A stretch of 26,105 nucleotides of DNA from Psammoneis japonica (lineage: Eukaryota). The notes beneath the pieces are model-generated. The model was not told the origin of the DNA, made no database searches, and saw only the letters and a list, made by a program, of their open reading frames with translations. Numbering within the stretch: the first letter of the stretch is position 1; each line of letters begins with the position of its first letter. Positions 22,680 through 26,105 of this stretch are shown one piece after another. Position numbers and translations under genes: made by a program. Location of the stretch: the NCBI GenBank assembly GCA_008632985.1, contig QPGO01000185.1:124001-150105 (forward strand), given 5' to 3'.

Positions 22680-23362
22680 TTAGCATGATTCAAGTTCTTT
22701 CATTATAGCCACGCCGTTCGATGTTCCTATTCGATTTGCACCCGCCGCTATCATGTTCTTGACATCAGCAAGGCTGCGAATACCTCCAGATGCCTTGACA
22801 CCTAATTTGCTTCCCATTGTCTCGCGCATCAATTGCACGTCCGCCGCTGTCGCTCCCGCAGATCCAAAGCCTGTGGATGTCTTGACGAAATCTACCCCGG
22901 CGTCTCGACAGATGTTACAGGCTTGGATCTTTTGTTCGTCAGTTAGGTAGCAAGTTTCCAAAATCACTTGCAAATCACACCACCAGTCCCGTCTTCTCCC
23001 TTGCACGCTTGAACCAATTGTTCGATCTCACTCCTGATGTAGTCGTGGTTGCCGTTCTGCAGTTCAAACACGTTGAGGACCATGTCGACTTCGGTAGCAC
23101 CGTGTTGAATTGCATCTTTGACTTCGTAGATCTTTACATTAGACGTACTCTGTCCTAACGGGAACCCAATGGCTGCCCCAACACGAACGTCAGTGCCTGC
23201 AAGTATCTCCGCACAGCGCTGGACTTGAGCGGGATTGACAGCTACCATGGCAAAGCCGTAGTGGGCAGCTTCTTGACAGAGTTGTTCAATATCTTTAGGT
23301 TCTCCGTGAGGTTTCAGATATGTATGGTCAATCATTTTGGCTAGAGTCTTTGGGTTCAGCAT
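22680..23362 (-). CDS. deoC: Deoxyribose-phosphate aldolase (DERA) domain, probably the C-terminal part of a PfkB-DeoC fusion; frame break at ~22968
   Basis: [36 protein letters not shown], Schiff-base [26 protein letters not shown]. Intronless. Confidence 0.92.
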
Positions 23363-24554
23363 AGCTTCAGGTGCGTCGGTCGTTGGAGTCCGCTCTGCAC
23401 ACGCTGGATAAAACTTTCCACCATTTCTTTGGTCGGAAGAGCGGGAATAGCACCGGGTTTGGTACAGGTGAGACCAGCAACGACATTCGCATAGTCCAAG
23501 GCATCTTGTACCACTGCTTTTCGATGGATTTGAAGGATCCACCGAGTCTTTGAAATTCTGGAAGCAGTCGTGATATCATGGCAGCCATAAATGAATCACC
23601 CGCACCCGTAGTTTCCACAACTTGGATATCCTTTAGCGCCGGGCTTTCAATGAGGAAGTCACCGGTGCAAGCCAACGCCCCTCCTTCTCCTCGGCTAAGT
23701 ACCACTAGCTCCACGCCCTGATCCAACACAGCCTGAATTCCTTTCTCAATGTCGTCGTGACCCGTCACAAAGCTAAATTCTTCTTCACTAATCTTTGCTA
23801 AACTGGCGTAACGAAATCCGTCAAAGATTGTGCGTCGCGCCGTGGCCTCATCTGGCCAAAGAGTCGGACGATAGTTGGGGTCGTATGTCACCATGAGATT
23901 TTTTTCTTTCGCTTGCTGCAAAAGTCTACGTTGTGCGGAAGCACCGGGTTCATCAATCAACGTGATGGATCCACAGTGAACACATTGAGCAGACTCAAAC
24001 ATGTCCATGGAAATTTCCGTCTCGAGCAACGATCGATCGGCGCCTCGATAAAAGCACATGTCTTTTCTACCATCGTCCCACACCGAAACAAAGACAATTG
24101 TTGTCTGTTCGTCATCATCGACGAGCAATCCTGAGGTATCGACGTGCGCTTGATTCAACGTTGTGCGCAACTTGACACCAAACGGATCGTTGCCGACTTT
24201 TCCAACAAAGGCACTCTGGAACGAGCCCAACCTTTGAACACCGACCGCCACATTAGCCGGAGCCCCACCTGGAGCACATGTAAAGGAGGACACGTCGGGA
24301 AGATTGACGTTGGATTCTTCAGCCACAAAATCAATCAAGAGTTCTCCAATGCAGACAACCTTTACAGCCTCTGATGAATCTTGCATTCGAAGAAGAAAAG
24401 CAGAATCCGAGTGTCGGAGGCAGTTACGACGAGAGAAGCGTGGCTGCTGGAAGCTATGGCATACAAAAGAAAGCGAAAGAATCAAGCTCCATAGCAGCCG
24501 AAGGAGCATCATTGAGGTGGATGAACCCGTCATCGTCATTCGGCGTCGTCGCAT
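23356..24554 (-). CDS. PfkB-family carbohydrate kinase (fructokinase-like) with bipartite plastid presequence; start probably 24512; frame break at ~23520
   Basis: CIGELLIDF, PGGAPANVA, VGKVGNDPFG, YDPNYRPTLW, KISEEE, VETTGAGDSF. After one restored base it continues DALDYANVVAGLTCTKPGAIPALPTKEMV. N-terminus MMLLRLLWSLILSLSFVCHS|FQQPRFSRR. Confidence 0.88.
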
Positions 24555-24890
24555 CGCCCATCATGGTGCTATTTCGTCTGATTTTGATTTTTTGTATTTT
24601 TTTAGACGACAAAAACGACATTTCCGTCGAAAAAAAGAAAACCAGGCAAAATACAATGGCTATCCAGCAGTTCCTCACATCCAGCCACGGTTACATAATA
24701 AGTAGGATTTGTACAGTAGAATTCGTTGAAACATACTGTACGACGTCAGCAAGAACATGTGTCTGGTATGCATCCTACATAACACATACAGTACATACTA
24801 CCGTAGGGCTATTGCACCCAATCGACGGACGCCTTCCGTTTTGTTTCGCGGTTCTCGCCATTAGCGAGCGGCGTAGCATCAGTCACTTTC

Positions 24891-26105
24891 ATGGAGTGCA
24901 CCGCTGGTCGTTGTCGACAACCTCCGTGTCTTGTGTTATACACCACTGTGGAGGAATCGGATGCAACGTCGTCTCATGAAAAGGACACGTCTCTTGCAAA
25001 GGAAATCGAAGGCACCGTTGCCGCAACGCTGGCGTCTCTTGCACCGCCGCGCAACGCAACGATCACAACTGCGACCGCGGAGGTAGCGTCGACTTCAACC
25101 ATGACGAACCAACCGTCGTCGTTGGTGGAAGGAGATGTGCCGGTGTCGCAGACGACAGCAAAACCGCCTGCAAAGGAGCCAATCGCCCTCCCCCCATTGA
25201 TCCCTTGCAAGGCATCCGAAATCTGTGGAGGACTGGATTTGGTCACCACACACAATCACTTGTCGGCAAACCCAAGCGGCACCATGCATTTTGAGGATCC
25301 GAACTGCAACATGAGTTCGATCCACACAACCGAAGCAAAAGCAGATGCAAACAACCCGGATCCTGGAAACAACGAAACAACTGAGATGGCAGCAAAGAAG
25401 GACGCGAAGAAGAAATCAAAGGAGATGGCATTGCTCAAAGATGTGAGAGACTGGCAGAGTTGTCACGCCACCGCACAGTCGTTCATTGATTTCATGAGCG
25501 GCAAACTTGCAGATCCACCCACCATCATTGCCAACGGTCCCTGGTGCGACAGCATCGGTCAGATTGGTTGGAAGCGGGATGACTTGGAATTCGTGAAAAA
25601 GATGGAAGGCAAGCTGTGCCGGTGGTGCTGGTTTCACCCTGCTGGTTCAGTGCCGACACAGCTGATGTGTGGCAATCTTCAGGAGGCGTTCGACGAAAAT
25701 TGGCGGCTTCGCCTTCAGATGCGCGTTAAATTGAAGGTGCCTTGGAGGGATCACATCGAAATCGGTCGTTCTCAAAGGAAGGGCGCAGGACTCGGCGTCT
25801 TCGCATCATCTTTCTTCCAGAAACAAGAGGTCATCGGCGTGTGCATTGGCACGGAAGTGTCCAGAAACCCAACTCCCTTCACTCACTGCTCTCATGACGA
25901 GCAGCACAGAATCGACCACAGTGTCTGTTTCCTGACACCACGCGAGCCCAACGGTCACTGTGTGACGGCAGCTCCCCAACCCTTGGAACTGGAAGAGGGT
26001 GAGAACACCAAGCCTCTGTGCCTGGGCATGCATTGTGTGAACGATGCGGAGGACACCTTTGAAGACCCCACCAAAATGACGAAGTCGGAAGTCAATGCCA
26101 ACAAC
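24891..26105 (+). CDS. SET-domain-containing ORF, 3' truncated; probably a hypermutated or repeat-associated copy (possible pseudogene)
   Basis: Open frame of 405 codons from ATG 24891 to the window end (hand-translated, not in the ORF track). Contains IEIGRSQRKGAGLGVFASSFFQKQEVIGVCIG (SET N-terminal GxGxFA...GxYxG) and PLCLGMHCVND (NH-motif equivalent). Confidence 0.65.
   Translation, partial: MECTAGRCRQPPCLVLYTTVEESDATSSHEKDTSLAKEIEGTVAATLASLAPPRNATITTATAEVASTSTMTNQPSSLVEGDVPVSQTTAKPPAKEPIALPPLIPCKASEICGGLDLVTTHNHLSANPSGTMHFEDPNCNMSSIHTTEAKADANNPDPGNNETTEMAAKKDAKKKSKEMALLKDVRDWQSCHATAQSFIDFMSGKLADPPTIIANGPWCDSIGQIGWKRDDLEFVKKMEGKLCRWCWFHPAGSVPTQLMCGNLQEAFDENWRLRLQMRVKLKVPWRDHIEIGRSQRKGAGLGVFASSFFQKQEVIGVCIGTEVSRNPTPFTHCSHDEQHRIDHSVCFLTPREPNGHCVTAAPQPLELEEGENTKPLCLGMHCVNDAEDTFEDPTKMTKSEVNANN

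Follow-up and report, generated by a model that had tools for sequence, protein, structure and literature searches.

How can a gene lose one dinucleotide nearly completely, and tyrosine with it, and still keep its reading frame open? This question is raised by the end of a stretch of 26,105 nt from Psammoneis japonica (contig QPGO01000185.1, 124,001–150,105, forward strand), which at its full length is called the window here and to whose positions all coordinates refer. The stretch ends within an open reading frame (ORF) of 405 codons on the plus strand (24891..26105), whose 3' end is open at the window end and whose true start codon is uncertain. From about 50 nt inside this predicted ORF up to the end of the window (24941..26105) there are only two TA dinucleotides in 1165 nt. 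An earlier note, made from the sequence alone, had proposed for this zone a context-specific mutator acting on both strands of a probably repeated or silenced segment, analogous to repeat-induced point mutation (RIP) but opposite in direction. According to our analysis TA has been purged here via A:T-to-G:C transitions on both strands, through silent routes where these exist, and the gene to whose coding body the zone corresponds is one of several copies in a fast-evolving family of SET/PR-like genes. As the driver of this purge we tentatively favour a TpA-directed mutational pressure.

Extent and direction of the TA depletion

The two remaining TA are found at 25084 and 25727, as had been noted before. 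The first (25084..25085) belongs to a GTA valine codon, at its third position, and is TG in another genomic copy; the second (25727..25728) spans the codon boundary GTT-AAA. The observed/expected ratio (O/E) of TA is 0.03 in the zone, compared with 0.59 in the whole window and with a range of 0.40–0.80 across the 18 other window ORFs of at least 150 aa which served as reference for this ratio. Nearby, the 151 nt from 24661 to 24811 alone hold 18 TA. A second reference consisted of 12 other window ORFs and was used for codon usage, dinucleotide gains and the coding TA rate. At this rate 40 TA would be expected in the zone, which gives a Poisson probability of 3e-15 for two or fewer. In 2378 other segments of 1165 nt the number of TA lies between 29 and 74 (mean 47.7). 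The longest gap free of TA extends over 643 nt while the runner-up in the window has 167 nt, and for every other dinucleotide no gap exceeds 205 nt. The erasure of TA is real and far beyond chance.

The remaining dinucleotides show in which direction TA has gone. The statement of the earlier note that CpG stays abundant and that TG and CA are common is borne out by the ratios: CpG is kept (76 occurrences, O/E 0.90), and TG (1.56) and CA (1.31) are both raised. AA, TT and AT are not depleted; for TT, the O/E is 1.21 in the zone and 1.09 in other ORFs. Drawn up against the 12 reference ORFs, the balance is -30 for TA, a small -10 for CG, +22.6 for TG and +22.4 for CA. Because the deficit in TA is matched by equal gains of TG and CA, the purge took place on both strands, just as proposed previously from the sequence alone.

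GC-biased gene conversion and a polymerase-eta-like bias towards WA sites were both dropped as sources of such a pattern, the former because of the undepleted AA, TT and AT, the latter because of the undepleted AA. The footprint of an A-to-I editing confined to the sense strand (ADAR or ADAT) is ruled out, since TG and CA were gained equally and tyrosine was replaced by both cysteine and histidine.

Inside the window neither the family nor the segment occurs a second time. Rfam gave no match between 24400 and 26105, and Tandem Repeats Finder reported only two short arrays of low score (32–33).

Silent routes and the reading frame

The depletion is not a mere by-product of a protein poor in tyrosine. 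When the Tyr-free protein was resampled synonymously with the codon usage of the 12 reference ORFs, 42.5 +/- 5.3 TA were obtained with a minimum of 20, and none of 20,000 resamplings had two TA or fewer. The difference becomes visible at the codon boundaries. Where a pyrimidine-ending codon precedes an A, its third base is T once and C 48 times in this ORF, whereas before any other base it is T in 71 and C in 68 cases. In the 12 other ORFs, the third base before A is T in 196 and C in 267 cases (Fisher test, 2.4e-11 within the ORF and 4.6e-10 against the other ORFs). Within codons the picture is the same: of TTA, CTA, ATA and GTA only the last is used, a single time, while TTG, CTG and GTG are common. 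The ban on TA thus works at the nucleotide level, beyond the loss of tyrosine.

A-starting codons following pyrimidine-ending ones are not depleted (49 of 188, compared with 463 of 2181 in the other ORFs); therefore, it is the silent T-to-C route that was used at the codon boundaries. Together with the use of silent escapes almost everywhere this means that selection at the protein level has acted throughout.

The frame contains no stop among its 405 codons. This is a weak test, since by the genetic code a change from TA to TG or CA never yields an in-frame stop; the open frame is consequently no evidence against heavy mutation. Between 24942 and 26105 there is no in-frame TGA, while each of the other five frames has 4–12 of them. 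Because of these TGA, the idea of hidden overlapping ORFs was dropped as well.

Several features near the start of the zone may bear on the transcript. A TATA-like TTATAC is located at 24936–24941. In another frame, an upstream ORF of 36 codons runs from an ATG at 24976 to a TAG at 25084–25086, hence it ends exactly at the first residual TA, and this stop sits 15 nt before an in-frame ATG at 25101. Judged by sequence, the transcript may start near 24942–24975 and the real start codon may be the one at 25101.

A divergent SET/PR-like family and its tyrosines

The identity of the encoded protein is not obvious. Pfam returned no family for the window ORF at E <= 10, and searches by a word-index protein method did not find relatives. 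An exhaustive phmmer search against 1.84 billion representatives yielded 12 hits, all of them weak (E 5e-9 to 8e-4), and a profile search returned four proteins, three of them new to the family. Six out of the 12 relatives match the Pfam SET family (PF00856) with 13.0–17.4 bits, below the cut-off of 22.4 bits. The window protein and A2 found no related loci among metagenome contigs, and viral contigs gave no match to A2, P0012 or P0007.

Searched against the PDB, the profile of alignment A1 has its best match in KMT2C (5f59_A, E 9.9e-6), followed by LegAS4, KMT2D and PRDM chains; the match covers the Trp...Tyr...Ser...Gly-Leu-Gly...Tyr-x-Gly stretch, that is, the N-terminal part of SET. The AlphaFold model of family member P0004 (predicted local distance difference test, pLDDT, 73.9) has 119 PDB matches at E <= 0.001. 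PRDM5, SET7/9 and PRDM9 lead them, MLL3 is also among them, and all top ranks listed are SET or PR proteins. The window fragment, which ends inside the domain, was modelled at pLDDT 65.8, and Foldseek found no match for it at E <= 0.001; the predicted SET/PR fold therefore holds for P0004 and not for the window's own fragment. By profile and model the ORF is nevertheless predicted to belong to a divergent family of SET/PR type, whose members have a basic tail and, N-terminally, a helical region, in agreement with the SET-like identity given in the earlier note. The predicted helical region common to the members corresponds to 25401..25682 on the plus strand and is followed by the N-terminal two thirds of the SET/PR-like domain (25683..26105, plus strand, ORF residues ~265–405); the window ends before the C-terminal motif with its Tyr. 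The proteins of the family are short, and their tails are rich in Lys and Arg.

One tyrosine is encoded in the ORF, by codon 17. The last 388 codons specify none, as had been stated before, but 14 Cys and 14 His. Tyrosine amounts to 0% in the window protein, 0.4% in P0007 and 1.1% in P0001, compared with 2.6–6.4% in the 12 other family members. In A1, ten relatives with normal Tyr content serve as the comparison for these three. The column of the Cys in GVCIG has Tyr in nine out of ten relatives; for PLCLGMHCVND, Tyr is found in six and seven of the ten at its two Cys. In the helical region, Cys-Arg-Trp of the window faces Tyr-Arg-Trp in the relatives. Thus, the claim that sites usually occupied by Tyr or another aromatic residue read Cys or His is supported. 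In RDHIEI the His falls in a column which is mainly Trp (seven, with three Tyr), and it is the Glu two residues further on which occupies a Tyr column (nine out of ten).

Taking all A1 columns with Tyr in at least half of the ten normal relatives, the three Tyr-poor members fill 25 cells, in which we count nine Cys, five His, four Phe, three Glu and one each of Asn, Val, Ala and Tyr. Cys and His are the neighbours of Tyr codons by a single transition; these transition products outnumber Phe, the usual functional substitute. The residue differs between members. The Gly-x-Tyr-x-Gly column has C, H and H in the window protein, P0001 and P0007, respectively; in the Pro-Leu-Tyr...His-Tyr motif the first Tyr column has C, C and F, the second C, H and C. 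Such differences fit separate hits on Tyr codons, as far as can be judged from the alignment. Terminal branches of the three Tyr-poor members are 2.64, 2.21 and 1.91 long, compared with a median of 1.24. A single clade of the three is neither shown nor rejected by the tree (approximately unbiased test, p-AU 0.206). Cys or His in homologs had been considered an argument against a mutator. P0001 and P0007 do have these residues, but both are poor in tyrosine themselves and seem, judged by their sequences, to share the loss of TA and Tyr.

At positions where Tyr is kept both in SET domains and in the family, presumably the conserved tyrosines of the cofactor and lysine pocket, the window copy has Cys; because of this, a methyltransferase activity of this copy is doubtful. 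In P0001, the last ~100 residues are Cys/Leu/Arg-rich, have no similarity to the family and resemble a product translated out of frame or by read-through. A tail of this type is what a gene caller would give where the off-frames hold few stops.

Copies of the gene and the adjoining repeat

For the analysis of copies we used a DNA run (X1), possibly the assembly's own sample, in which 86 contigs align to the stretch, 33 of them with at least 99% identity, 29 with 95–99%, 19 with 90–95% and 5 with less than 90%. The summed depth of these contigs, which is no true copy number, is 48–84 in the flank (23000–24559), 1988 at 24664–24767, 70 at 24976–25079 and 125–473 in the gene body (25080–25911). 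A marine-sediment metagenome (X2) contributed two contigs of 151 nt, with 6 and 7 differences. The gene body is present in several diverged copies, and so the segment is indeed repeated, as the earlier note had suspected.

Among the 17 rows of differences listed for the zone (the table has 51 further rows), three make up one replaced codon; the other 14 were counted as single differences. Eight of these are CpG transitions, three are linked to TA, of which few targets are left, and three are neither. Seven of the 14 are silent changes of a third position. At 25052 and 25862, both silent sites at codon boundaries, the window has CA and another copy TA; at 25085, the window has TA, and TG is found elsewhere. 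The copies hence differ in which TA are gone. Among the rows listed, CpG-linked differences number eight out of 14 for the zone and five out of 17 for the flank, counts too few to claim a methylation of the copies.

Directly upstream a short high-copy repeat is located (24650..24772), with a summed depth of ~1988 compared with 48–84 in the single-copy flank. On its upstream side, four different flanks are joined on at 24647–24653. It is rich in GTAC/ACAGTAC-like words, and its TA content is normal (O/E 1.03; 1.13 for 24650–24941). Convincing terminal inverted repeats or ends resembling long terminal repeats (LTR) were not found in it, and for lack of the former we do not call it a miniature inverted-repeat transposable element. 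In one X1 contig of 1993 nt, with ~87% identity, 24692 is joined with 25743 and 25870 with 26023. Possibly this is a shorter paralog which has the upstream repeat and is devoid of the long N-terminal region; the first joint has only 35 letters on its shorter side, which makes this weak.

The TA-free gene is divergent from a gene for a PfkB-family kinase (23367–24554, minus strand), with which it has a spacer of 336 nt in common (24555–24890). This spacer contains a T-rich/A-rich imperfect inverted repeat (24570–24653) and the high-copy repeat. Neighbouring genes are ordinary eukaryotic ones, coding for the PfkB kinase, WD40, HECT, PI3/4-kinase, protein kinase and DeoC aldolase proteins. Inside the PfkB kinase gene, at 23562–23695, two contigs of 134 nt with depths of 35.6 and 28.8 differ at 9 positions; this looks like the two haplotypes of a heterozygous diploid.

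What drives the loss of TA?

The purge and its direction are observed, and from them we infer, tentatively, a mutational pressure directed at TpA and tied to this unit, be it as a transcribed or as a repeated one. TA became TG or CA on both strands, and selection let pass the silent outcomes (NNT-A to NNC-A, NTA to NTG). Tyr codons became Cys or His codons even for the most conserved Tyr of the domain; tyrosine was sacrificed because its codons have no silent route. In favour of a mutational driver we count the equal gains of TG and CA, the excess of Cys and His over Phe in the Tyr columns, the different residues of the Tyr-poor members at one column and their long terminal branches, the multi-copy gene body and the differences between copies at TA sites. 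Under this preferred reading, selection among the copies would keep those which still function, and the surviving lineage would be a TA-free 'footprint', immune to the agent. Candidate agents would be the deamination of an adenine that follows T and a modification by which the T of TpA becomes mutagenic, which are indistinguishable because TpA is its own complement. A natural, eukaryote-wide adenosine deaminase preferring U at -1 is Tad2/Tad3, according to a report on mRNA editing in fungi (PMC11156358). Carried further, a marine protist would possess a natural activity which edits A:T to G:C specifically at TpA in a repeated or mobile gene family, be it on the DNA or via RNA and cDNA, a mirror image of RIP, with TA-free and Tyr-free SET-like genes as its immune survivors. 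This wider proposal we regard as possible, though on the whole unlikely.

Several results weigh against a mutational driver. The near-exclusive use of silent routes (T 1, C 48 before A) together with the undepleted A-starting codons argues against an unfiltered burst of mutation. The adjoining high-copy repeat was spared, although a marking of whole repeats should hit it, unless it is too short. The start of the zone ~50 nt into the ORF suggests a cause at the transcript level. Among the differences listed between copies in the zone, CpG transitions prevail (8 of 14) and only 3 of 14 are TA-linked, and the seven silent third-position changes suggest an ongoing constraint. One old origin of the three Tyr-poor members is possible from the tree. 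Among the sequences considered, a candidate enzyme was not seen. Finally, all sequence results are equally expected under selection against TA or UA. Of the context-specific mutator, therefore, the erasure of TA and its strand symmetry stand, while the mutator itself does not follow from them; the same data fit both drivers and do not settle between them.

The main rival, only slightly less probable in our view, is selection, be it on TA at the DNA level or on UA in the mRNA, for instance by escape from a UA-specific endoribonuclease or from a strong destabilisation by UA. It might reflect a selfish element or a defence conflict, in which each TA would be costlier than the loss of a conserved Tyr. 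That the zone begins near the ORF start, with TA-rich or TA-normal DNA on the promoter side, is more easily explained in this way than by a mutator. The silent routes taken wherever available, an otherwise conserved protein and the in-frame absence of TGA, of which the other frames have 4–12, are in line with it as well. Fewer UU and UA in coding regions are reported to raise mRNA stability in mammalian cells (PMC3345983). However, TT is undepleted here, which rules out a UU/UA avoidance of the RNase L type, and a natural eukaryotic gene with a near-complete ban on one dinucleotide was not found in the literature searched. Moreover, the conserved Tyr turned into Cys or His instead of Phe, and Phe has not been restored since. 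TA occurs at silent sites in other copies (25052, 25862), and no nuclease is known here.

Immunity to transposons targeting TA was dropped by reasoning: the benefit per site would be far too small compared with the loss of conserved Tyr.

A special case of the preferred mutational reading is the editing footprint of a retroelement. The ORF would be that of a retrotransposon, deaminated at A following U or T both in the RNA (TA to TG) and in the first-strand cDNA (TA to CA), with every round of replication. Only the transcribed part would be purged, which would reconcile the mutator with selection, and indeed the purge is limited to the ORF side of the boundary. The gene is multi-copy, its summed depth climbs from 70 to 473 in 5' to 3' direction as with 5'-truncated copies, and the family consists of short proteins with Lys/Arg-rich tails. 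However, summed contig depth is no copy number, reverse transcriptase, integrase and LTR were not seen within the window, which ends before any second ORF, and upstream neither terminal inverted repeats nor LTR-like ends were found. We consider this explanation rather improbable.

A foreign origin, by transfer from a TA-poor donor or virus with a composition not yet drifted to that of the host, is more improbable still. The composition is unlike that of the 18 other ORFs, and word-index searches found no close relative. However, we know of no donor with a TA O/E near 0.03, and the family is absent from the viral contigs searched. A transfer would also shift the question to the donor and leave the change from Tyr to Cys and His, relative to Tyr-normal relatives, unexplained.

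Chance, ordinary codon bias or amino acid composition can practically be dismissed: TpA is mildly under-represented window-wide (O/E 0.59), but the Poisson probability of 3e-15, the resampling (0 of 20,000) and the compared segments (0 of 2378 with fewer than 29 TA) reject them.

If the mutational reading is true, repeats would for the first time be known as the target of a natural A:T-to-G:C hypermutation with sequence context. Such a defence of the genome would be of a new kind, found neither in fungi nor in animals, and a natural editor of adenine (or thymine) at TpA might be obtained from it. If selection is true, the TA/UA step must be sensed strongly enough in this organism to outweigh conserved catalytic residues, which would point to an unknown nuclease or decay pathway and, besides, to a repeated element with which there is a conflict. 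In both cases nature has made an unusual experiment on how proteins evolve under a ban at the nucleotide level, with a family of nuclear genes that does almost without one dinucleotide and hence without tyrosine. Neither TA-free genes nor a TpA-directed A-to-G hypermutation were found described, for diatoms or any other eukaryotes, in the literature searched, of which subscription journals were mostly outside coverage.

Comparison with known systems

With RIP of filamentous fungi the zone has in common near-saturating transitions in a dinucleotide context, on both strands, in a multi-copy sequence; a duplicated target, as in RIP, is seen here in the X1 copies. According to PMC2621366, RIP changes C:G to T:A, mostly at CpA, and thereby creates TpA. 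In the zone TpA is destroyed, and CpA and TpG are gained. Genes hit by RIP acquire stops and die; this one has an intact frame in which silent routes were preferred, and the neighbouring high-copy repeat is unaffected. The zone is thus no product of RIP itself. Against a simple RIP-like process on the whole repeat speak the normal TA content of the upstream repeat, the start of the zone within the ORF, the intact frame and, with few TA targets left, the share of only 3 TA-linked among the 14 differences listed.

Depletion of target motifs by APOBEC3 and ADAR hyper-editing fixed in retro-copies are cases in which repeated or parasitic lineages lose the editing motif, filtered by function. The zone resembles these deaminase footprints as a repeated sequence without the target motif whose loss was filtered by selection for function, but differs from them by the TpA context and the strand symmetry, and we found no evidence for a retro-copy. 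ADARs are animal enzymes and act on one RNA strand. Closest in context is the A-to-I editing by fungal ADAT (Tad2/Tad3), for which PMC11156358 gives a strong U(-1) preference, with UAY Tyr codons becoming Cys and UAG stops Trp. That editing belongs to the sexual stage and affects hairpin loops of sense-strand RNA, leaving the DNA unchanged, whereas the changes in the zone are genomic and half of them are TA to CA, on the other strand.

UpA suppression in mRNAs and RNA viruses and the avoidance of short words in phages are similar to the zone in that the depletion falls on synonymous and codon-boundary sites. In the known eukaryotic and viral cases UpA suppression is partial and genome-wide. 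The zone, in contrast, has an O/E of 0.03, is local to one gene family and sacrificed conserved residues, while UU is undepleted.

As for the protein, the family resembles SET/PR methyltransferases such as KMT2C, SET7/9 and PRDM5/9 in its profile matches and in the predicted fold of P0004. It differs from them in that Pfam SET stays under the cut-off in all members, and in its extra N-terminal helical region and basic tail.

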